From a virus (taxonomy: Duplodnaviria; Heunggongvirae; Uroviricota; Caudoviricetes): a DNA stretch of 64,000 nucleotides. Made by a program: the position numbers and the translations under genes. The stretch lies in IMG/VR virus record IMGVR_UViG_2802429224_000004, positions 1-64,000 of that record; one strand, given 5' to 3'. Shown piece by piece: positions 3,201-53,547 of this stretch (position 1 is the first letter of the stretch; each line of letters starts with the position of its first letter). Under the pieces are notes generated by a model. It had not been told where the DNA came from and did not search any database. It saw only the letters and a program-made list of their open reading frames with translations.

Positions 3201-6200
3201 TCCATGTCAGTACATACGCGGTCCATATCCCTGATTATTGAGAAGATCGGACGGGCTTTCTCGTGCTCAATCACGCCGTCTTCATTGACCGAGGTCGTTA
3301 CGCCATTGTTGGCTTTGGCCGCCGCTTCCGCCTGCTGACGCAATTCTTCATACGCCGCCAGTTGTTCTTCAGTAAGTGGTGCATCCTGCTGGTGTTCGTC
3401 CAGCTCCGGGATCTCCACGGTATCCTTAACGTCTTCCGCCGTTTTAAGCGTTACCCAGCGATGGAATATACCGCGCAGCGCATCAAGGTTTTCAAAGCCC
3501 ACCAGCGCCATTTTTTCTTCAACTTCACCGCTGATTTTCTGTACCGTTTCCAGCCTGGTCTTGCCGAAGAATTTAACGAAGTCATCAGGACCGTAGATCC
3601 CCATCTTCTGCCAGTATTCCTTCGGCAGAACATGAGAAAGCATGTTGTATGCATCGATCGGGGTGTTAACGACTGGCGTTGCAGTCAGGAGAACCGGCCC
3701 GCGCCCGCCATTCTTTTTCATCAGGTACGCGTTTTTAATTGCCATATCCCGCGCCGATTGCGCCACCGCGCTGGTGGGCAGATAGGCCAGTTGTGACGCT
3801 TCGCGACCATTTTTATAGCTATTGCGGTAGTTGTGACCTTCGTCGGCGATCACACTATCGAAGCCCATATCCTCAAAGTACGGATACTTCTCTGCTTTTT
3901 CGGTGCCGGTATCTGAATACTCCGACAATACCCGGCGACGCGCGGCCTCTTTGCGGTGGGAGTCGGAGTCCATTGCGCTGGCTACGCGCCCGGCGGCAAC
4001 GAAGTCATAAAGCATATCCTGTGCATGCTCATCTACGGTGTCATCACGTAGCGGAATGCGGGCGTATTGTTCTTTGGTAAACACGACTGCACGGTAATTT
4101 GAGTGCGGGATCGCGTTCATTCGCGCGGTGATAGTGGCTTCATCTGCCAGTTTAAGAGCATCACGCATAAGTGGAGTGCCATCAGTACCAAGGACAGGTT
4201 TACCGTTCTCATCGAGCACCGGCACCTGGCGAATCTGATCGCCATCCATCAGCACATCAAGACCGACGAACAGGTAGTTACTGAATGCTGCTTCACTCAG
4301 GAACTCTTTTGCTTCGTAATACCAGTTTTCCAGCACTGATTTAGGCACTACATAAGCAGTACGGGTGGAGCGACCGTTCTCATAGTTGAACGCCTCAAGC
4401 GCCAGCGCGGTCGTCGTTTTACCCAGCCCGGTGCCGAAGCCCAGGATGCCGCGCCCATCTTCAGACAGTCGTCGCACCTCGCTATTCTGGTAATCAAATG
4501 GCTGGCGCTTACCGCTTAATCCCTTCAACCCAAGCGGATCGCCAGAGTGTTCATACGGAATATTGCTATTGAAAACATCGTTGTATTTGGCAACCAGCTC
4601 ATCGTAGCGATCGTGTGTCTTGATCCACTTATTGAACTGGTCCTCAAGCAGTGCCATCTGCTCGCGGTAGCCGTTCGCCGTCGCGCTATCTTTGCCACCG
4701 ATACGCGCACCATTGAGATACTTTTCCAGCTGTGCCGGGAACCCGGTCGCGTTTTCACCTGATTTACGGTCCCACTCGTAGCGGATCTCGCCTGTTTCTT
4801 TATCCTTGCGCTGGACGACACCGTATCGGTGTCCGACGAACAGACCATCACCACCGTGATAGGTGTCAGAAACCATTTCGTCGCCTTCCAGCTGCACTGA
4901 CTGCACATAGCGCAGATCCGGATAGCCGTTTTCCTGCAAAAACTCCAGAATGACGGAACGGTCGAACCAACGGCTATTGAGCTTAAAGCGGATATTCTCT
5001 GCTGGCGTCTTGATGCGCTTCTCTTCGATCGCTGCCAGCTGATTAAGGACGTTGTTCTTTACTGGACCGTCGGGGAGCGTGGCGAGGAATTCCTGTTTTG
5101 GAACCACTATCTCGTTAATGTCGCCGCTGGTGGCGCGGGCGAACGGAACAATCCCGCCATACGGCGAAACCGCAATACCTGGGGTGCTGGCCAATAAATT
5201 AAGCAACTCTTCATCACTGGCTGGCAGTTCGCCGGTAAACGCAAGGCGGAAATCATCGAGCTGGATTGGATCGCGGGTAAGATCGCTATAGAGATAACGC
5301 AAGGTGTCCTGATAGCTGGTGGAGTCATAACTTGCGCTGGAATCATGCGTAACCAGCTTTCCTGTCAGCTCGTCAGAAATAGTGCCATCCAGCTTAATTG
5401 CACCACGGAAAGCAAACCAGGCGCGCGCACCGCTTCCCGATAATTTAGCTATCGGACCGCGACCGGGGTTACCAAAACGGTCAATCTCTGCCTGCAAACG
5501 GGATACCAGAGAAAGGCGCTGCTGTTCGATTTGTTCAGCACTATGCCCGGCGGCCTTCATATCCTGATATTCAATTAACATCCGGCCAATCATCGCCCCG
5601 CGATACAAGCGTTCACGGTATTTTTCAGGCTGGCTGTTAATCCAATCCACCAGTTGCACCATATCGTCGCTGATTGATGTGGTGTACTTATCGCGGACAT
5701 TTGCCATCTGGGTAAATGTCATGCCGAGACGACCTTCGGTGGTAGTCAGGTTACGCTGAAGAGCCTCCCAGCTATCCGCGCCATAACTGGCAACATCAAT
5801 CTTCAGCTCCTTCCCGGCATCAGCTTCAATCCAGCGACCACCAGCATATTTTTGCCATACGCCATTAATCAGGCGCATTTCCCCTTCATCAAAAACATCT
5901 GCGGTCGGTGACGGCTCAGCCATATCGAGCAAAGACCAGTCGATACGACTTTCGAAACGATGAATCAGCTTCGCTTTAAGAGCCTGGTTATCAATCTGCC
6001 CGTCGGCACGAACCTCAATACGCCCCTGGAAGCCCTTCTCCTGGGTGCCATGAACAAACCGGCGGCCGTCCTTTTCAAACCACTTGCCAGAAATAAACGT
6101 TGGCCAAAGCACATTTGCCGATTCAAGAGTGCTTTCATCCACCAGGGGGATTTTCTCAGCCATCTCTGCCGGATGTTTGCGCATCAGCACCACATCAACG

Positions 6201-36778: not shown

Positions 36779-36959
36779 GTATTTTTAAGTCGCGAATGCT
36801 ATCTTTTCGCATCATATTGACCTTTTAATCGTTCAGGCTTATAGTTCCCGCCGTCGTAGCAAATTCTGCGACCGGGTTTAGCAGCCTGAATACTTACGCG
36901 GACAACCGCAGATTTCCGATATTGCGGTATTTTTGTGTCCGTAAACCACGTTACGCCCG

Positions 36960-37085
36960 AATTATGGTGGGGCGTGATGGGGAGGCTTCGGCCTGCTGGT
37001 TTCGTAAGTGCCAGTCTGCTAACCCCGTCACGTCCTGCCACCTGTTTAGCAGCGGGTCGCAGGTTGTTTATCAACTTACGAGGCC
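36960..37085 (+). ncRNA. candidate c4-like antisense RNA region (boundaries undetermined)
   Basis: Non-coding, structured region between the operator and icd containing stem-loops (aggcttcggcct UUCG tetraloop; ctgctaa...ttagcag); called by position relative to icd/ant only. Confidence 0.2.
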
Positions 37086-44973: not shown

Positions 44974-45033
44974 AACTTTCCCTGTTATGCGCCCCGCACG
45001 GGGGCGCTATGTTAAACGGAGAACTTCCCCTGA

Positions 45034-46740
45034 TTACTCAGAGTCACCGGCATCAATCGTGTCGCCGCTTATGAAGTTAAGCCCGCCTTTTTTGGCCATT
45101 GTCAGCGTTACACGAGTGAAGTAATCAGCGCCGTTGCGTGGGTGCATATCGTTGATAGCCGAACCCCACAGCGTGGTACGGTTGACCAGCGCCGGAGTGG
45201 TCGGATGCTGGAACGGGATGGCCGGGACAGCATCACCAGTCACGAAGCCTGCTTTACCCGGATTTTCATCACGGACGTAGCACAGCACATCCATCGAGCT
45301 GAACTGAATGTTCTCTGTCGTTAAGTTCTTACAAATACCAGCAGGTACTTCGTACACTTTCACGTTACCGAACAGGGTACCGATGTAGTGAACATACGGA
45401 GTCTGGATATAGTCTTCGGCTGGCTGGAAGAAATCCTTCGGCAACTGTTTGAAGAAAGATGCTGCATCAGCACCAGCAAACATCCCCATCGCACCAGAAG
45501 ATTTAACGCGCTCAATAATGTCGCGATATACAGTCTGGAATTTGCCACGAATGATGGTTGCCCATACATCAAAGGACTGGTTAACCGGCAGAGCGATGTC
45601 AAAGGTGTCGGTCGCAAGAGTACGCCAGATCATGATGCGAAGACGCAGCATATCCTGTTCATGAGACAGGTATTCCTTCAGGGTGCGGAACTGTAGGGAA
45701 CCCAGGTCCAGACCAAATTCACGCTGTGCTTCATACGCCGCCTGTACCGTGTGCTCAGCCGCGATAACGAACTGGCTTGGGAACAGGGTGTATTTCTTCA
45801 TTTCGTGGTTGATCAGCGGGATCAGCTCAGGAGCGGCTTCAATATTGATTTCCGTCTCAATTGCGATCTCAGTGCCTTTATCCGGCGCTTTGGAGAACGA
45901 CAGGGCAATCTGACCAATGTTGTAGTTCAGAGAGCAGGTAACAGTGATTTGCTCACCAGCAGCATTAGTAAACGAGTGAAGTAGGCTGCCGGAACCGTTA
46001 TCAACAACAGACTTAATACGGTTAACGTAGATGTTAGTGCGACCTTTTCGGATTGGTACATTCTGGCCTTCGAAGTCTTCCATCTTGAAGGTTGCGGTTT
46101 TGCTGGTGCCATCGGAGCTTGCCACCAGCACATAGCGGCGGCGTAACTGGCTGTACACACCGACGGATTGCATGTCCAGAACATCACCAGCAGCATAAGA
46201 ACCAAAAGAGGAACCTGCCACGTTAAAGACTTCATAGATGTCGGACTGGTCACGCGTAACCGGAATGAAGGTACACGCATCAGCGGTAGCTGCCCCCAAC
46301 TGAACAGGCAGGATCATCGCGAGGAATAAAGGCAGACGCATAACACCGTCAGAAACGCTCATCATCTCTGCTGCGACGGATTCCAGCATCGCTTTATTAG
46401 TGGCATCCATGCTATTGCGGGTGGACTCAATCAGGCAGTTTTCCAGCGTCTGGTGGCAGGAGGCCAAAATTTCCGGACGCGGCATAGATTTATGTGCTGC
46501 GGCGTAGTCAGCCAGTGCACTTGCCCACGCTGTAGCGATTTGAGCGGTGGCATTATCAGAGATACCCGCAAAAATTGGGTCTTTACGTGCAGCTTCAAGG
46601 ATAGATGCGGCACGCGCGGCATCATCTTTAATGAATTGGTTATCAGTACCGAACTGCGCAGTGCTTGCCCAGCCAAGCACAGCTTTAGAGCGTTTTGCGA
46701 TATCTGCAATACGATTCTGGTATTCGCGTAAGTTACTCAA
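45034..46740 (-). CDS. major capsid protein (gp23-like)
   Basis: ~568 aa from TTG at 46740 with aggaag RBS (ORF extends to 46761); large structural ORF next to par locus. Confidence 0.5.
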   Translation of the reverse strand: MSNLREYQNRIADIAKRSKAVLGWASTAQFGTDNQFIKDDAARAASILEAARKDPIFAGISDNATAQIATAWASALADYAAAHKSMPRPEILASCHQTLENCLIESTRNSMDATNKAMLESVAAEMMSVSDGVMRLPLFLAMILPVQLGAATADACTFIPVTRDQSDIYEVFNVAGSSFGSYAAGDVLDMQSVGVYSQLRRRYVLVASSDGTSKTATFKMEDFEGQNVPIRKGRTNIYVNRIKSVVDNGSGSLLHSFTNAAGEQITVTCSLNYNIGQIALSFSKAPDKGTEIAIETEINIEAAPELIPLINHEMKKYTLFPSQFVIAAEHTVQAAYEAQREFGLDLGSLQFRTLKEYLSHEQDMLRLRIMIWRTLATDTFDIALPVNQSFDVWATIIRGKFQTVYRDIIERVKSSGAMGMFAGADAASFFKQLPKDFFQPAEDYIQTPYVHYIGTLFGNVKVYEVPAGICKNLTTENIQFSSMDVLCYVRDENPGKAGFVTGDAVPAIPFQHPTTPALVNRTTLWGSAINDMHPRNGADYFTRVTLTMAKKGGLNFISGDTIDAGDSE

Positions 46741-46874
46741 TTTACTCTTCCTTAAACACAAGGCACTTGTGTGAATCCCTTTTCGGAAGAGATTTTATTG
46801 AAAGTCACTTGTTGACTTTCTCGTGACAAGCAATTTTTTTATTTTTTTCGGGAGTAGGGGATGAAGGTAAAATC

Positions 46875-46965
46875 CAAGGTGAAATCGTGGCGATTTCACC
46901 TTGAAATTTTAGAGGGATTTACTTTAAAAACAGTAGTTTAATGGTGAAATTTGAATGGCGAAAGT
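46875..46965. other. parS centromere
   Basis: Heptamer boxes GTGAAAT/ATTTCAC and hexamer TGGCGA flanking an AT-rich stretch (gtgaaatcgtggcgatttcaccttgaaattt), directly downstream of parB. Confidence 0.6.
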
Positions 46966-47967
46966 TTAAGGCTTCGGCTTTTTATCGAGGCTCTTTCTAA
47001 GGATATGCCCAATCATCCTGTCGAGTTCTTCCTGTAGCTCTTTTGAAAGTCGATTAAACTCATAAGAAAATGCACGGCCTTTCACGCGCTTCCTTGCAAA
47101 GCGATCCTTGTCCTCAAATTTCCATAATTCAGTAACTACGGACTTATCTTTAGAACCTTTATCCGTGAGTAGTGAGGCTTCCTTTGTTATCAAGCGCAGG
47201 ATTTTATTTTTAACTTCATCTTCGGCCATTTCTTCAATGGATAAGATGTCGTTTATTTCCGGGGATATGTTTTGAATAAGCTGATCAAACTCTAAATTCT
47301 TGTTCCCCATTTCGTCGCCAACAGCACAAAGCGTTTTGTAGTCCGAAAAGGTTAATTCCGACTGCACAGGGAAAAGGGCGACTAATTCTTCCGGAGCACT
47401 CGCTGCCTGGAGAGCACGCGTGACCTTCGCCTGAGACAGCCCTTCTTTGGCTGCAATATCCTTCTGACTCATCCCATCATTTTTCATTCGCATCAAACGC
47501 AGACCTATTTCTCGAATGCTGTGCTGCAATGCTGTCTGAACGTCTTTCGCTAAATTTTGCGCTTCCTGAACGCTGATCTCCTGGTCCGTGACTAAAACCC
47601 GCAACCCTACGTTCTCTAAGATGGCAGAAGCTCGACGCCGGGAACCATCCAAAATTTCAATTTTCCCTGTAGCCCGTCTAACACCTATTGCAGGGTAAAA
47701 TTGCTGATGCTTAATAGTGCTTCGGATACTTTTTAATGATTTTGGCGTAAGAGATGCTTGGTCACGCCCGTTGTTATGCTGATCAACAAAGGTATCGCTT
47801 TCTACCTGGTTCGGAGGTATTACCTCTTCAATAAATGTGGCCTGGCGACCAGTTGATAACTTGAATACCTGCTCGACTCGATCGCCAGAGGCTGAAGAAC
47901 TATCAAATCCGCTTAATATTGAAGGATTAAGGGTTCGCCCAATTGTTGGTCTGTTTTTCTTTGACAT
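46966..47967 (-). CDS. parB: partition protein ParB
   Basis: 333 aa; ParB motifs; length and sequence as remembered for P1 ParB. Confidence 0.85.
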   Translation of the reverse strand: MSKKNRPTIGRTLNPSILSGFDSSSASGDRVEQVFKLSTGRQATFIEEVIPPNQVESDTFVDQHNNGRDQASLTPKSLKSIRSTIKHQQFYPAIGVRRATGKIEILDGSRRRASAILENVGLRVLVTDQEISVQEAQNLAKDVQTALQHSIREIGLRLMRMKNDGMSQKDIAAKEGLSQAKVTRALQAASAPEELVALFPVQSELTFSDYKTLCAVGDEMGNKNLEFDQLIQNISPEINDILSIEEMAEDEVKNKILRLITKEASLLTDKGSKDKSVVTELWKFEDKDRFARKRVKGRAFSYEFNRLSKELQEELDRMIGHILRKSLDKKPKP

Positions 47968-47983
47968 GGGGGTTTCTTACTCC

Positions 47984-49180
47984 TCAGTTAGATCTGATAA
48001 ATTCAATACGGTCAAAAACTGCTTTAGCAAAATCTTCCGCGGCAATTCGCGCGTTCTTCAATGCATCAGCACTACCAACATACGTTGCCGGGTTAGCTGA
48101 AATAACAGTGTCAAAAGACTCGCCGCAACGTTCAAAACCGTCAAGGCGAGGGAGGACGACATCGAGCATATCCCCACCGAACACTTCTTTAGCCAGGCTA
48201 TGGCAATACTTATGATCTGCCTTGTTACTCAACTTGGACATAAAACCAATGTTAGTCGCAAGCTGGCACTCGCAGCCTTCATCCGAAATGAGTTTCACCA
48301 ACTCAGGAAGGCGGGCAACGTATTTAAGCGATGAGTGGAAATCGACAGTTGCTGGCGGCAGAGGTGTAAACAGTATATTGGCCGAGGCCAAAGCATTTTT
48401 CAGGAAGGCGTCAAGGTGAGGACCACTATCAACGAGGATAAAGTCATAATCGCTCTTCAGCTTATCAATCACATTTTCTTTCAGGACAGCATGGATGTTC
48501 TGACCCGGTAGATGCTCATTGCACAGCTCTCTCCAATCGGATGCAATAAAGGCATCGTCAATCGACGCAGGCATAACGTCAACCCCAGGTACAACAGAAG
48601 GAACAATAAACTCCTCTAACAGCTCTTCACGGCTTACATTCTGCAACATAGCCTGTGCAGATGTTGCGTTTACGATACCAATAGAGTGTTTATGGCTTAA
48701 AAACATCGTTGCTGAAGATTGCGGATCAAGGTCAATAACCAGAATCCTTAAATCTTCCATCAGAAGATGAGGGTGGGCACGCATTGCATGCGCCAGAGAA
48801 ACCGTCGATACAGTTTTTGACACACCGCCTTTAAGATTGGAGATGAAAATCACATACGCTTCGCTGTAGCGATCCCGGTATTTTGGCACTCCGCGGTGTT
48901 CATATATGTCAATGATGTTCTGAATTGACATCGCATATTTCATTGAAGAGCCAGCAGGGCGTTTATCGAAAACATAACCCTTTTCTTCCATTTCACTTAC
49001 GGCATAGTCAACGTTCGCTCGAGTCAGTAGAGGCAATTTTGCCAGTGCCGCTTTCGCATAGACCTGGTAAAACTCGTTCGCGTGTAGCTCATCCTTTTGC
49101 AACTGTACTTGTTCAGTCAGAACATTGAGCATTCTGTTTGCTCTTTGAGCAACCTTGTGAAGCTGGCTGGAATCACTCAT
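47984..49180 (-). CDS. parA: partition ATPase ParA
   Basis: 398 aa; deviant Walker A KGGVSKT; N-terminal HTH extension. Confidence 0.85.
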   Translation of the reverse strand: MSDSSQLHKVAQRANRMLNVLTEQVQLQKDELHANEFYQVYAKAALAKLPLLTRANVDYAVSEMEEKGYVFDKRPAGSSMKYAMSIQNIIDIYEHRGVPKYRDRYSEAYVIFISNLKGGVSKTVSTVSLAHAMRAHPHLLMEDLRILVIDLDPQSSATMFLSHKHSIGIVNATSAQAMLQNVSREELLEEFIVPSVVPGVDVMPASIDDAFIASDWRELCNEHLPGQNIHAVLKENVIDKLKSDYDFILVDSGPHLDAFLKNALASANILFTPLPPATVDFHSSLKYVARLPELVKLISDEGCECQLATNIGFMSKLSNKADHKYCHSLAKEVFGGDMLDVVLPRLDGFERCGESFDTVISANPATYVGSADALKNARIAAEDFAKAVFDRIEFIRSN

Positions 49181-49317
49181 CGAAAGTCATCCTTTATGCT
49201 GTATTTTTGAATTTAATTAAAAATGCTGCATAAAATAATAATGTATGCGTAGATGCTTGTACATAGCATTCTCTGCATGTTTGGTTCATTTTGTACGATT
49301 GAGAGTTACAAGGAGGG

Positions 49318-49348
49318 CACAAAAAAGCCCCGTTCAGGGGCATCAGTG
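49318..49348 (-). terminator. rho-independent terminator after T5orf172-like gene
   Basis: minus-strand hairpin gcccctgaacggggc followed by TTTTTT. Confidence 0.5.
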
Positions 49349-50158
49349 TTATTTGTTAAGAGCTGCGAATAATCGTTCGAAATCGATAGTATCTATAGCA
49401 CGCGTTAGCGCCGGAAGTTCAGCCTCAAAGCACCCGTTTCGATCGTAAAAGAAGGGACCGAAGAGCGAGGCATGTTGGATTCTACTTCGCCCCAGTCCGG
49501 ACACACAGTTAAGCCCATTACCGGCTAAAAGGCTAAAAAACTTCTCTGGATTATCGTGGTAAAGCTGGGAATCAATGGTGGCGGTTAACTCTTCCATAGG
49601 GAAGCACACCCGCCCTGTCTCCCAGGGATATTTAGTCCGAAGCGTAAACATCGCTTTCAGCAATTCACATTGAGCGCGGATCGCGTCAGGTTCATAGCCA
49701 GATATGGAGACATAAGCCACATCCCTCATTCCTGCGTCATCTTTGAAAGTCACGATAGAAGTAACATCCAGTTCTTTTTCGAAAGAGCGAGCAGCATCTA
49801 CTGGACGCTGAAGTAAATCATTCGACTTAATCCGCTCGAGAATCCCTCCCCACATATCATTTAGATATTCGATATGAGCCAAAACCTTATCAAGACACTC
49901 TCGTGTAAACCATTCAGTATGCCCGCCACCGGCGCTTTTCTCCCACGGCGCATTCCAGGGGAAAAAGGTTGCGTGTAAAGCCCGCTCAAGATTAACTATT
50001 GCCAAACGCGTACCACGATAGACCCGTGAAAGTGCAAAATCGGGACTCACTTGTAGCCCTTTAAACCGTGCCAATGGACCACATGAAATGCCGATTTTAA
50101 AAGTATCTCCGTTCTCCGGCACCAGAACGTAGAGGTAGTGTTGTTTCTCTTCTTGCAT
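49349..50158 (-). CDS. T5orf172 / GIY-YIG-like domain protein (accessory)
   Basis: 269 aa; N-terminus HYLYVLVPENGDTFKIGIS...LERALH...EWF fits the GIY-YIG-like T5orf172 pattern; lies between incA-like iterons and the parA promoter. Confidence 0.5.
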   Translation of the reverse strand: MQEEKQHYLYVLVPENGDTFKIGISCGPLARFKGLQVSPDFALSRVYRGTRLAIVNLERALHATFFPWNAPWEKSAGGGHTEWFTRECLDKVLAHIEYLNDMWGGILERIKSNDLLQRPVDAARSFEKELDVTSIVTFKDDAGMRDVAYVSISGYEPDAIRAQCELLKAMFTLRTKYPWETGRVCFPMEELTATIDSQLYHDNPEKFFSLLAGNGLNCVSGLGRSRIQHASLFGPFFYDRNGCFEAELPALTRAIDTIDFERLFAALNK

Positions 50159-50164
50159 ATCAAT

Positions 50165-50460
50165 ACCACTGCTTGATGAGAACCGCGCAAATGTTGACTA
50201 TGCGCGAAAGTTAATGTGAATAGTTGACTATGCGCGATGTGACTACAGTCAAAAGTTGACTGTAGTCGATTTAACTCCACCAAAAATCGACTATGTAAGA
50301 TATTGTCGGGAGAAACGTTGACTATACGCGATGAAATGACCCTAAAAGCCATCTCAATAGCGACTTGCAGAATATTGACGCCAGCAAAAATCCACCAGCG
50401 TCAACGAATGTCGCCTATAGTCAACTTCTCGCTATCGCATATAGTCAATATTATGGATTG
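50165..50460. repeat. incA-like iteron array downstream of repA
   Basis: At least six copies of TTGACTAT(A/G)CGCG-type repeats in both orientations. Confidence 0.55.
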
Positions 50461-51335
50461 CGCTTATGGATCTGGAAGCCGATTTTCCTGCCGTTTTTTA
50501 TCTCTGAAAATTTAAGATATTCAATAGCTTCCAAATCTTTCATAGCTTTTCTGATAACGCTATTTTGCACGCTAACGGATGATTTGAGATTAAGCCTTGC
50601 TCTAAGGCGCTCAATGCTGACAGGTGCCGGGTTGGCGGGTAGAGCCTCAAAGAATGTATACAGTACCTTGGCCGTCTCTTTGCGCCCGAGCTTATCCAGC
50701 ATCTTCAGCTTCAGGATTCGCTTATAGTCAACATAGTAAAGTTCAGATAGCTGTTTCTGCGGCTGGATCTCGATAACATCAAGCTCGGTATTCAGGCTGC
50801 TATATGCCAACAAGTTGACGTTAATGTTATTGAGATGACCTTTTGCCGCCGGGAAGCGGAATTTGACAACTGTCTGCTGAATGCGTGTCAGAGAGTCATC
50901 AATACTTTTACGGAACGCCTTTGAAAGGCGCTTACGTGGATAGCCGCATCGATCGGCAAACTCGGAGAATGGCAGGGTGATTATGCCGTCATCATCAGGT
51001 GCGTAGTCAAACAACGCGGAGGTTATGCCCACCCACACCTTAAAATCAGTATCCATATCCAGGCGTGGACCATGTATTTCAATTCCCTCATAGCCTTCCT
51101 GCTCAACAATTTTGAGGCTTGATAGTTCTTCGGTTGCGTTCGTTGTGTTTGTAGTAACTGACGATCCGCGACGTAGTGCCACATTGGTAGATTTTAAGGT
51201 TGGCACAAACACACCTAAGCGCAACAAAGCGATGGGTTGTATAGTGCTATTGTTATTGGGTTTCAGGCTGTGGATTTCTCCTGTATTTCCTGCAACTTCT
51301 TCAACGCTAAGGAAGCCTTTATTTTCTTCCGGCAT
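50451..51335 (-). CDS. repA: plasmid replication initiator RepA
   Basis: 294 aa from ATG 51335 with ggag RBS; RepA-family segment QPIALLRLGVFVP; flanked by iteron arrays. Confidence 0.75.
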   Translation of the reverse strand: MPEENKGFLSVEEVAGNTGEIHSLKPNNNSTIQPIALLRLGVFVPTLKSTNVALRRGSSVTTNTTNATEELSSLKIVEQEGYEGIEIHGPRLDMDTDFKVWVGITSALFDYAPDDDGIITLPFSEFADRCGYPRKRLSKAFRKSIDDSLTRIQQTVVKFRFPAAKGHLNNINVNLLAYSSLNTELDVIEIQPQKQLSELYYVDYKRILKLKMLDKLGRKETAKVLYTFFEALPANPAPVSIERLRARLNLKSSVSVQNSVIRKAMKDLEAIEYLKFSEIKNGRKIGFQIHKRNP

Positions 51336-51404
51336 CGTGGTTTCTCCATATGTGGCGCGGCCTGGCGTCATCTGGATTGCAGTTATCAACAACTGTGAAT
51401 AGTC

Positions 51405-51627
51405 AGGCTCTAAAATCGCGTACAGTCAATGTTTCTGTCGCGTATAGTCAACAATAAATCGCGTGCAGTCAACAATAAATCGTGCACAGTCAACATAAAA
51501 TCGCGTATAGTCAATGTTGATCCCATTTCAGGCCAGAAATGGCGCGGCTTACAGCGATCCGGGATCTTCTTTGGATCTTCCTAGGTTCTCTTTAGGATCT
51601 GTTTATTGGATCTATGCTGTGGATAAG
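51405..51627. other. plasmid origin oriR: five direct iterons, GATC cluster, DnaA box
   Basis: Five ~21-bp direct repeats (ATCGCGTATAGTCAA-type) at 51412-51520; five GATC within 51556-51612; perfect DnaA box TGTGGATAA at 51618-51626. Confidence 0.6.
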
Positions 51628-51669
51628 TTGAATAAACCGGCCAATAAAGCCGGTTGGAAGGAAGCCGTA

Positions 51670-52062
51670 TTATTCTACGCTTTCGATAAGAAGACCATGT
51701 TCATAACATTTAAGCTCATCGCCTTCGTACAGGAATTGGTATCCAATACCACCATTTTCATGGACATTAGGGAATAACTCATAACTCACTGAAGAGCAAA
51801 TCACACCAATGCAGCGATCAACGCCTTCTCGTTCTTCAGTGCTGAAAAAATCCTCTTCGGTAAGAACATGAGTACATTGCTCATCAGCATAGGTCGGAAA
51901 TATATGCTCGATGCAATCCGGGTGTTTTAAACCAAGCTGATCGGCAAGCTCGAAAGCATGACGGTATTGTTCAGATCCTGGCTTGCCAACAGTGATGTGC
52001 TCAATTTTGTAGATTGAAGTCGCTTTGTTGATAGTTTGCTTTACTGTTACTTTATCAGACAT
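51670..52062 (-). CDS. hypothetical protein
   Basis: 130-aa ORF; no motif recognised. Confidence 0.35.
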   Translation of the reverse strand: MSDKVTVKQTINKATSIYKIEHITVGKPGSEQYRHAFELADQLGLKHPDCIEHIFPTYADEQCTHVLTEEDFFSTEEREGVDRCIGVICSSVSYELFPNVHENGGIGYQFLYEGDELKCYEHGLLIESVE

Positions 52063-52073
52063 AAAAATCCCTT

Positions 52074-52325
52074 TTAGTTACCGCTGATAGCGCGGTTGTA
52101 ATCATTAACGTTGCGATTCTTCCTGTTAATCCCCATCAGCATCGTTTCTGTATCAAGGATATAGGCTGGCAGATCATCAAAATATTCACTGCTAAACTCT
52201 GGCATCCTGCACATAAATGCACTTTTGGGGGCAGGGTGGTTAACCTTTGTCGGCGTCGGCGTTAAATTCGCTGATCGACTCCCGGAGCAACCGCTGAGTG
52301 TCAGCAGGAATGCGCTGGCGAACAT
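52074..52325 (-). CDS. outer-membrane lipoprotein, o-spanin-like
   Basis: 83 aa from Met MFASAFLLTLSGC (lipobox LSGC), Pro-rich mature part; overlaps 3' end of i-spanin-like gene in another frame. Confidence 0.45.
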   Translation of the reverse strand: MFASAFLLTLSGCSGSRSANLTPTPTKVNHPAPKSAFMCRMPEFSSEYFDDLPAYILDTETMLMGINRKNRNVNDYNRAISGN

Positions 52326-52662
52326 TACCCGCCGCAACCAGTTGTTTCTGAACTTCTGCTTTTCGTTCCATTTGCCTGTCAGCATACTTGGCTTGCTCTG
52401 ATTCATTTTTCACTTCCTGGCTGTGAAAATGTTGATCTGCTTTGTTCATCGTCTCAATGGTCTGGTTAAGATCCATTATTGACTTATCACGTTCCTTAAC
52501 AGCCTGATCAAGACTGCCAATTTTCTCGATGGCTTGCTTTAGCTGATGACGTTCCCATGCAAACCCAGCACCAACAAGTGCGCAAATCAGAACAAGAACA
52601 CCAGTAGCAGCAAGTTTCTCCTTCAAAGACAAAGCTGTTTTTAACGTAGAAAAGAATGACAT
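52240..52662 (-). CDS. i-spanin-like protein (N-terminal TM, periplasmic coiled coil)
   Basis: Start at internal Met with aggagg RBS; TM ATGVLVLICALVGAGFAW then coiled-coil; overlapped lipoprotein gene. Confidence 0.45.
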   Translation of the reverse strand: MSFFSTLKTALSLKEKLAATGVLVLICALVGAGFAWERHQLKQAIEKIGSLDQAVKERDKSIMDLNQTIETMNKADQHFHSQEVKNESEQAKYADRQMERKAEVQKQLVAAGNVRQRIPADTQRLLRESISEFNADADKG

Positions 52663-52701
52663 GTCTTCCTCCTGAAGAAAAATTATCAATGAAGTCCTTT
52701 G

Positions 52702-53547
52702 TTACTGTGCCGCTTTGTTTAATTCATCAAGAACAGAATCAGGAACCAAAGCGGCGACTGCGCTGGATGTGCTGGTCTTATTTGCTGATGCCTCCGCAAG
52801 CGCGGTACCAATAGCATGGTTATAAGCAGTTATGGCTATGCTGGCGCTTTCCTTCGCCCGTTCATACTGCTGTTGCAATGCAACTGTGGGCGCTGTTGTT
52901 TGGTTGAAAACTCCCCCAAACTGTTCAGTTGCTACTTTCAGTGCTTCAATTTGCTTTTCTGTTAGTGCTGGTGGGGGAGTGGCAGTACCTCCGCCTGAAT
53001 CAGAGCCTGACGAGTTTCCTGAGCCAGTGTTAAGGGTCTGGTTAATATCTCCCATAGCAGCAACTAAACTTGATGTATTAAGCGCGTTTACAGCGTCCTC
53101 AAGCGATTTAGTAATAGTCACATCACCAATGGCAATAGAGATCGGCAGTTCTGATACTTCTCGCTCATTAGCACGGCAATAAACATCCCAACCAATATCG
53201 AGTTGAAGCAGCATTGACAGATCTGCATAACCAGCCAACAGGTCCGCGTGCTTAGTTGCCAGTTCTCCAATGTTCGTTAAGCCGGTTGTGGTTGTTCTGA
53301 TCGTTGAAACATAGCTGGTAATAGTGTCGGGATAGACAATTGCATCCAGAATTAATCCGGTCAATTCTTCTGCAAGCAGTTTTGCTGTGTTAGCACTGTT
53401 TCGTGCCGATGTTATGGCACCAGGTGTTTTCATCCCACCGGCGGCGGCCAATTTTTTATATGCGGATAACTGGTAGTCTTTTTCCAGCATGATATCTCCT
53501 AACTTACCTGAACCAGGCCGTCTCCGGACGCTACGGTAGATCCGCAT
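52702..53547 (-). CDS. hypothetical protein
   Basis: 281 aa; Ser/Gly-rich segment; no motif recognised. Confidence 0.35.
   Translation of the reverse strand: MRIYRSVRRRPGSGKLGDIMLEKDYQLSAYKKLAAAGGMKTPGAITSARNSANTAKLLAEELTGLILDAIVYPDTITSYVSTIRTTTTGLTNIGELATKHADLLAGYADLSMLLQLDIGWDVYCRANEREVSELPISIAIGDVTITKSLEDAVNALNTSSLVAAMGDINQTLNTGSGNSSGSDSGGGTATPPPALTEKQIEALKVATEQFGGVFNQTTAPTVALQQQYERAKESASIAITAYNHAIGTALAEASANKTSTSSAVAALVPDSVLDELNKAAQ

Follow-up and report, generated by a model that had tools for sequence, protein, structure and literature searches.

The window analysed here is a stretch of 64,000 nucleotides (positions 1 to 64,000 of the IMG/VR virus record IMGVR_UViG_2802429224_000004), which by its sequence belongs to the P1-like phage-plasmids of the RCS47/SJ46/JL22 ('p0111') type. 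Within its replicon, a gene on the minus strand (49349..50158, ATG start) encodes a protein of 269 residues that is assigned by its N-terminal domain to the T5orf172 branch of the GIY-YIG nuclease superfamily. About 4.6 kb around this gene is 98.5-99% identical to the phages RCS47, SJ46 and JL22. An earlier account drawn from the letters of the DNA alone (the sequence-only reading) had described the open reading frame (ORF), its T5orf172-type N-terminus, a terminator belonging to it, and its place in the gap between incA-like iterons and parA. Each of these is borne out below.

The nuclease gene and its signals

Residues 8 to 85 of the protein match the Pfam family T5orf172 (PF10544) with 26.8 bits against a gathering score of 20 (E=7.9e-6). 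This match lies within an N-terminal nuclease domain of roughly residues 1-117 (49808-50158, minus strand), which is followed by a C-terminal domain of roughly residues 128-269 (49352-49777, minus strand) that is an orphan. The full length of the protein is spanned by PHROG 2876 (function not assigned; E=4e-191), and its N-terminus also matches PHROG 681, 'endonuclease' (E=1e-9); a search of the NCBIfam models gave no match. The reading frame is a genuine gene and not a chance ORF, because it is kept in hundreds of elements, its ratio of nonsynonymous to synonymous polymorphism (pN/pS) is below 1, and diverged homologues of 25-44% identity occupy the same position. It is also common and already annotated in public genomes. 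The gene is present in 412 of 5,426 complete E. coli genomes (about 7.6%), nearly always on a plasmid, where it is labelled 'GIY-YIG nuclease family protein'.

The gene ends in an intrinsic terminator (49317..49341, minus strand) composed of a 5-bp all-GC stem, a 5-nt loop and a T-tract. The hairpin, GCCCCTGAACGGGGC (49341-49327, minus strand), begins 7 nt past the stop codon, is followed by TTTTTTG, and has a folding energy of -11.9 kcal/mol (z=-2.7 relative to shuffled sequences). A consensus scan of the minus strand, including the iteron array, revealed no σ70-like promoter for the nuclease gene, and no terminator-like site was found between it and repA, the gene upstream. A compositional anomaly was also sought and none was seen; the GC content is 0.45-0.49, like that of the neighbouring genes.

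The replicon cassette

The nuclease gene is the last gene of a 2,249-bp replicon cassette (49283..51531) that comprises, in the direction of transcription, origin iterons, repA, downstream iterons, the nuclease gene and its terminator. This cassette stands in place of the 1,491-bp incC-repA-incA segment of P1, and it is bordered on both sides by DNA homologous to P1: positions 45000-49282 at 99.3% identity and 51532-54032 at 94.1%. The left junction (49282/49283) falls about 19 nt upstream of the -35 hexamer of the Ppar promoter, and the right junction is at 51531/51532. Just outside the cassette, within the flank that matches P1 at 99.3%, lie Ppar itself (49235..49263) and the P1-type partition genes parA (47984-49180) and parB (46966-47967), which together occupy 46966..49180 and encode proteins with 99.7% (ParA) and 100% (ParB) amino acid identity to those of P1; all are on the minus strand. 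Beyond the right junction is the part of oriR that the window and P1 have in common (51532..51700, minus strand), with a cluster of GATC sites (51556-51612) and a DnaA box, TTATCCACA (51618-51626).

Inside the cassette, five origin (incC-like) iterons with a spacing of 21-22 bp (51416..51515, minus strand) precede repA (50451..51335, minus strand), which encodes a Rep3-type initiator of the p0111 type, 294 residues long from the ATG at 51335. The stop codon of repA, at 50451, is followed by an incA-like array of six iterons (50193..50449) with the consensus GTTGACTATACGCGA. Four of these (50193-50207, 50223-50237, 50255-50269 and 50317-50331) are inverted relative to the origin iterons, and two (50411-50425 and 50435-50449) have the origin orientation. 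The array ends 35 nt upstream of the nuclease ATG, and parA starts at 49180, on the far side of the nuclease gene. Annotations of the repA start vary: the mechanically called ORF begins at a TTG at 51392 (313 residues, the extra codons being 51336-51392), and public records use the ATG at 51335 (294 residues) or other starts, such as that giving 306 residues in SJ46. A near-perfect iteron with one mismatch, GTTGACTATAAGCGA, is found within the repA coding sequence (50718-50732, minus strand). The number of downstream iterons also varies; two IMG/VR copies, L037 and L048, are without one inverted-iteron unit of about 30 bp (at about 4940-4960, corresponding to about 50207-50240 of the window) and have repA and the nuclease gene intact.

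In P1, the last incA iteron is separated from Ppar by a gene-free spacer of about 190-210 bp, and neither tblastn nor blastn-short detected a remnant of the nuclease gene there. The sequence-only reading had taken the gene to be an insertion into a P1-type maintenance region. The gene does sit in that slot; however, a simple insertion into the P1 replicon is rejected, since the cassette differs throughout. The window RepA is only 41% identical to that of P1, the iterons differ from those of P1, and the two segments measure 2,249 and 1,491 bp. Thus, what looked like an insertion is really the replacement of a whole specificity module, of which the nuclease gene is one part.

Distribution, decay and rate of evolution

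In the plasmid collection, the cassette was found in 404 records and the nuclease gene in 401, nearly all from Escherichia or Salmonella and all with a protein identity of at least 90%. Outside this group, the full-length family is rare. A phmmer search of 1.84 billion representative proteins returned about 75 remote relatives, which are related through the N-terminal domain only. Of the full-length protein it found relatives in no more than three further lineages, and a profile search across 5.8 billion proteins agreed that the full-length family is limited to these. Scanning 185,579 species-representative genomes with a four-sequence alignment yielded a single Escherichia contig.

The three other lineages all lie on P1-like contigs and all occupy the same slot, in the order repA, downstream iterons, nuclease gene, parA, parB, gene 23. 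They are P0004 in L003 (44% identical), P0010 in L004 and L005 from Salmonella (28-31%), and P0011 in L006 from a faecal metagenome (25-39%). The iterons are of the type TTGACTATACGCGA in the window and L003, of the P1 type ATGTGTGCTGGAGGG in L005, and of the type GGCTACTGCATGCTAC in L006; in each lineage, the last iteron stops about 25-40 nt short of the nuclease start. As called, P0004 (311 residues) opens with 41 residues of translated iterons (L003 8001-8123, with 'AYSQH' appearing twice), and its true start is most likely M42, giving 270 residues.

Two comparisons are instructive. L005 resembles P1 in its iterons, which are of the P1 type, and in its RepA (83% identity), but the roughly 210 bp of unrelated spacer in P1 corresponds to about 1,010 bp in L005, nuclease gene included. 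At this single fixed locus, the gene is genuinely present in one element and absent from the other. L003 and L005, in turn, have backbones that are 98-99% identical, with RepA proteins of 41% and nucleases of only 28% identity, and the two points at which their homology stops are those found between the window and P1. The shared breakpoints, together with the diverged RepA and nuclease, indicate that repA, the iterons and the nuclease gene move together and are exchanged as a single unit. The sequence-only reading had allowed that the gene might be conserved in all P1-like replicons. It is indeed present, at a constant position, in four of the five replicon types compared, but it is absent from the fifth, that of P1 itself (IncY).

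This distribution bears on a suggestion of the sequence-only reading, that the gene may be associated with defence. An anti-phage or superinfection-exclusion nuclease would fit the facts that nucleases are common defence effectors, that prophages often carry defence genes, and that this gene is dispensable and variably inactivated (see below). However, a search of PADLOC-DB 2.0 matched no defence family at E values up to 1, adding to the lack of an NCBIfam match, and nothing else was found in support of the suggestion. The gene also stands alone without a partner, in a fixed replicon-cassette slot rather than in a variable island, and unlike mobile defence genes its family is confined to P1-like replicons, being absent from other plasmids and, but for the one Escherichia contig, from the species genomes. 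A role in defence is consequently improbable.

The fate of individual copies was followed in about 50 copies of the p0111 cassette with complete loci, taken from a scan of IMG/VR and from plasmid and phage records. Eight of 47 ungapped nuclease genes contain premature stops, which represent four independent events (at codons 17, 68, 112 and 228, that at codon 112 being present in five copies), and one further copy is frameshifted. In another (L055 5295-7057), an IS200/IS605 element with ORFs for a 389-residue TnpB-like and a 141-residue TnpA-like protein splits the gene, and about 230 bp of the gene is deleted. In total, there are six independent inactivations, leaving about 20% of the copies disrupted and about 80% intact. 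In the same sample, no interruption was seen in 49 copies of repA, 44 of parA or 49 of parB. The codon-228 allele is that of the inducible phage SJ46, whose record annotates a coding sequence of 227 residues; SJ46 has been found as a plasmid of about 104 kb in seven Salmonella isolates (PMC5241659). The truncated clusters P0002 and P0003 were rejected as evidence of decay. They look like assembly-end artefacts, because P0003 lies at a contig start and P0002 is labelled 'partial' by its source. An IS1-truncated remnant of the nuclease gene is also present in plasmid pLR-46_1, and it is uninformative. Replicon labels in the records are inconsistent: MOB-suite gives 'IncHI1B' for the PLSDB records L008-L012 and IncFIB for pLR-46_1, and RepA is entered in phage records as a 'replication helicase' or 'RepFIB'.

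The constraint on the gene is weak relative to its neighbours. Its pN/pS is 0.38 (0.36 for the N-terminal and 0.40 for the C-terminal part), compared with 0.02 for repA, 0.02 for parA and 0.10 for parB, and pairwise ratios of nonsynonymous to synonymous substitution (dN/dS) agree with this contrast. Between the window and L003, protein identity is 84% for RepA and 89% for ParA, but 44% for the nuclease and 32% for its C-terminal domain. At the nucleotide level, the same comparison gives 75-82% for repA, 55-70% for the N-terminal part of the nuclease gene, 40-56% for its C-terminal part, and 73-80% for parA.

Together, these results indicate that the nuclease gene is dispensable and stands outside the machinery of replication and partition. 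They leave little room for the idea that the protein is an accessory factor of the replicon, one that aids or regulates Rep3-type replication or copy number for example by processing or binding iteron-RepA complexes, or that regulates par expression. Such a factor would account for the constant linkage to repA and the iterons in four replicon types, for an orientation shared with repA with no terminator between, and for iterons that stop 35 nt upstream of the ATG. Yet about a fifth of the sampled plasmids, including SJ46, persist with broken alleles while repA, parA and parB are never broken, repA and parA are under roughly 20-fold stronger constraint, and P1 manages the same replicon architecture without the gene. 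Moreover, the window and L003 share an iteron type and RepA proteins of 84% identity, but have C-terminal domains that agree at only 32%. Because of the natural knock-outs and the absence of the gene from P1, a role in replication or copy number is very unlikely, the least probable of the explanations considered here.

Domain structure, relatives and proposed role

Structural analysis used a model built from a five-sequence family alignment; a single-sequence AlphaFold2 (AF2) model (pLDDT 40) was unusable and was set aside. In the model, the N-terminal domain adopts the GIY-YIG α/β fold. Residues Y10, K21, G23, R31, H62 and E82 are invariant in nine homologues, down to 24% identity, as well as in the five-sequence alignment, and the motifs align with the GIY-YIG protein 1ywl (E=0.31). 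The conserved Arg and Glu would be equivalent to the catalytic Arg and Glu (E180) of Odn, a T5orf172 nuclease of phage ICP1. The N-terminal domain is thus predicted to be catalytic, with its key residues kept. Eukaryotic SLX1 (PDB 6seh, 7cq2, 7wme) has only the fold in common with it, at 11-17% identity, and differs in being a repair nuclease that has a RING/PHD domain and pairs with SLX4.

The invariant residues also bear on the thought that the gene is a relic in decay, or that its product has been domesticated as a DNA-binding protein (a CapR-like repressor) without catalysis, with little or no nuclease function now. Raised pN/pS and repeated pseudogenization would agree with this, and CapR provides a precedent of a repressor derived from a homing endonuclease gene (HEG) (PMC10448857). 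However, the catalytic-type residues Y10, R31, H62 and E82 are unchanged across lineages that are only 24-44% identical, the pN/pS of the nuclease domain (0.36) is well below 1, and four-fifths of the copies are intact. Given that the active-site residues are conserved, a dead relic or repressor is disfavoured, and we regard it as doubtful to about the same degree as a role in defence.

The C-terminal domain is specific to the lineage and, judging from the model, probably a winged-helix DNA-binding domain. It has no Pfam family (Rep families included) and no profile match in PDB, and a profile search of 5.8 billion proteins with this domain found nothing beyond the nuclease family. Its top non-nuclease structural matches are WH1 domains of Rep initiators, with weak scores, and ORC/Cdc6, MarR and other winged-helix proteins score similarly. 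Sequence kinship of the domain to RepA was considered and rejected, as hhalign against the local RepA profile gave a probability of 0.2%.

Two kinds of nuclease are the closest functional models. The first are the freestanding T5orf172 HEGs of phages, such as those for ICP1 gp53, gp121 and gp130 and those of T5-like phages (Barth, Dunham & Seed 2023, PMC10448857). Like these, the window protein carries the PF10544 domain (structural matches in BFVD have E values of about 1e-5), with the nuclease placed terminally and the remainder forming a distinct, putatively DNA-binding region. Like these also, the gene adjoins an essential gene (here repA), is variably present, has an ORF that is unstable, and encodes domains that diverge at different rates. 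Differences exist as well. Zn-finger modules (CapR, DUF723, DUF4397) are present in 87% of the T5orf172 HEGs (PMC10448857), while the window C-terminal domain is none of these modules and is known only from the family of the window nuclease; those genes lie among lytic genes, while the window gene lies in the plasmid-maintenance module of a phage-plasmid.

The GIY-YIG freestanding HEGs of T4 (I-TevI and the Seg proteins) have an N-terminal GIY-YIG catalytic domain, a linker and a C-terminal DNA-binding domain, a layout like that predicted for the window nuclease. They are intergenic, have their own signals, and co-convert flanking markers. The window nuclease differs from them in belonging to the T5orf172 sub-branch, with Lys in place of the second Tyr of YIG, and in having another binding domain.

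The second model is Odn (ICP1 Gp88), together with its coliphage analogues, in which a T5orf172 nuclease is joined to a DNA-binding domain that is not a Zn-finger (PMC8263062, PMC10448857), as is putatively the case here. ICP1 ORF88 is a structural match to the window nuclease (E=2e-3), both are tied to iteron-type replicons, and the resemblance of the modelled C-terminal domain to initiator WH1 domains adds a weak similarity. The binding domain of Odn, however, belongs to the RepA_N family, lies at the N-terminus and shares 42% sequence identity with the RepA of its target (PMC8263062, PMC10448857), whereas that of the window nuclease is C-terminal and has no detectable sequence likeness to any Rep protein. 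Odn is also the weapon of a lytic phage against a satellite, whereas the window nuclease resides inside the replicon of its own element.

These comparisons lead to two readings, whose chief differences are the beneficiary and the DNA that the C-terminal domain would recognize. The one we favour, though tentatively and a little short of an even chance, is that the gene encodes a HEG-like, site-specific, two-domain endonuclease of the T5orf172 branch and is a dispensable passenger of the P1-like replicon cassette. It is preferred because of the combination of a nuclease with conserved residues, a fast-evolving and probable DNA-binding domain, an essential gene as neighbour, presence or absence at a fixed locus, and weak constraint accompanied by decay. 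This set of features is the signature described for phage T5orf172 HEGs and their derivatives (PMC10448857). The domain identity, position, cassette linkage, narrow distribution, fast evolution and recurrent inactivation of the gene are direct observations.

The main rival reading holds that the protein is a replicon-directed nuclease, like Odn, that benefits its carrier. Here a Rep-type (WH1-like) C-terminal domain would read iterons and guide destruction rather than homing, aimed at the origins or iterons of incompatible P1-like elements, satellites or other plasmids. The weak structural resemblance to WH1 domains points this way. Against it are the lack of sequence likeness of the domain to local RepA proteins or to Pfam and PDB families, structural scores that are weak for a fold as common as the winged helix, with ORC/Cdc6 and MarR scoring alike, and the failure to find a candidate target replicon. 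We consider this reading unlikely, although less so than the roles in defence, in replication or as a relic. The narrower proposal that the domain is a diverged Rep WH1-type iteron reader, by which P1-like phage-plasmids turn an origin-directed nuclease on each other's replicons, is less probable still. If it were correct, rivals would be destroyed or would undergo a 'replicon homing' (from IncY to the p0111 cassette and the reverse), which could help to explain the two replicon types on near-identical P1 backbones.

Under the favoured, HEG-like reading, the gene would be transcribed in the direction of repA. Transcription would probably start at the promoter that RepA autoregulates, read through the downstream iterons and end at the terminator of the nuclease gene. 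A weak ribosome-binding site would keep translation of the nuclease low. The target of the nuclease may then be a specific site in the corresponding repA-parA segment of another P1-like element, resident in the same cell or co-infecting it, whose allele differs or which lacks the gene altogether. Repair by recombination through the near-identical flanks (parA on one side; upfA and the part of oriR with the DnaA box and GATC sites on the other) would provide the rival with a copy of the nuclease gene together with the repA and iterons linked to it. Alternatively, the cut element may be lost. Once all partners carry the gene, selection would relax and the gene would decay.

Several points qualify this reading. 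Some selected function is still present, since the majority of copies are intact and pN/pS does not reach 1. In the p0111 population, recombination is spread evenly (Rm=48 over 4.8 kb) with no focus at the nuclease gene, and neither homing, partial conversion tracts nor hybrids were seen; the gene is fully linked to its own repA and iterons. The plasmid collection contains no plasmid with an IncY repA and a nuclease gene of the window or L005 type, and the L005-type gene occurs in none of its records. Sharp cassette edges can arise simply from recombination that is confined to homologous flanks. Finally, several elements of this scheme are inferred: that the protein is an active nuclease, that its C-terminal domain binds DNA, that it has the target proposed here, that the gene is co-transcribed with repA, and that homing occurs at all.

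Our literature search found no paper tying T5orf172 to P1-like elements. What this analysis adds is a gene locked to P1-like replicon cassettes in four diverged forms, dispensable and decaying, whose product carries an orphan and possibly winged-helix C-terminal domain and has T5orf172 HEGs and Odn as its closest functional models. P1-like phage-plasmids frequently carry extended-spectrum β-lactamase (ESBL) and mcr genes, and their two main replicon types, IncY and p0111, are found on nearly identical P1-like backbones. The p0111 type, seen in about 7.6% of the complete E. coli genomes, is always accompanied by the nuclease gene. If the nuclease cuts rival replicons or promotes conversion of the cassette, it would provide a mechanism for replicon turnover and escape from incompatibility in these clinically relevant mobile elements, and would in addition extend the principle of Odn and HEGs from lytic phages to plasmid replicons. 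If the gene is only a decaying selfish passenger, it could be left out of p0111-based vectors and typing schemes or simply disregarded there.

Some further features of the window lie outside the cassette. A full-length match to the sok antitoxin RNA (Rfam RF01794; 40980-41154, plus strand; 115.7 bits against a gathering score of 59) suggests that the element has a type I toxin-antitoxin locus of the hok/sok type. The C4 antisense RNA (RF01695) and its a1/b1 target repeats (RF03163) are found at 36839-37045 (plus strand), a region that we take to be the immI immunity region of P1. On the same strand are tRNA-Asn(GTT) (58068-58142) and tRNA-Met(CAT) (60082-60157); the SJ46 paper lists three tRNAs (Asn, Thr and Met) (PMC5241659). 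Lastly, a segment of upfB (52722-53100) is 86-89% identical to P1 and RCS47, which are themselves about 99% identical to each other there, and the window therefore carries a different upfB allele.
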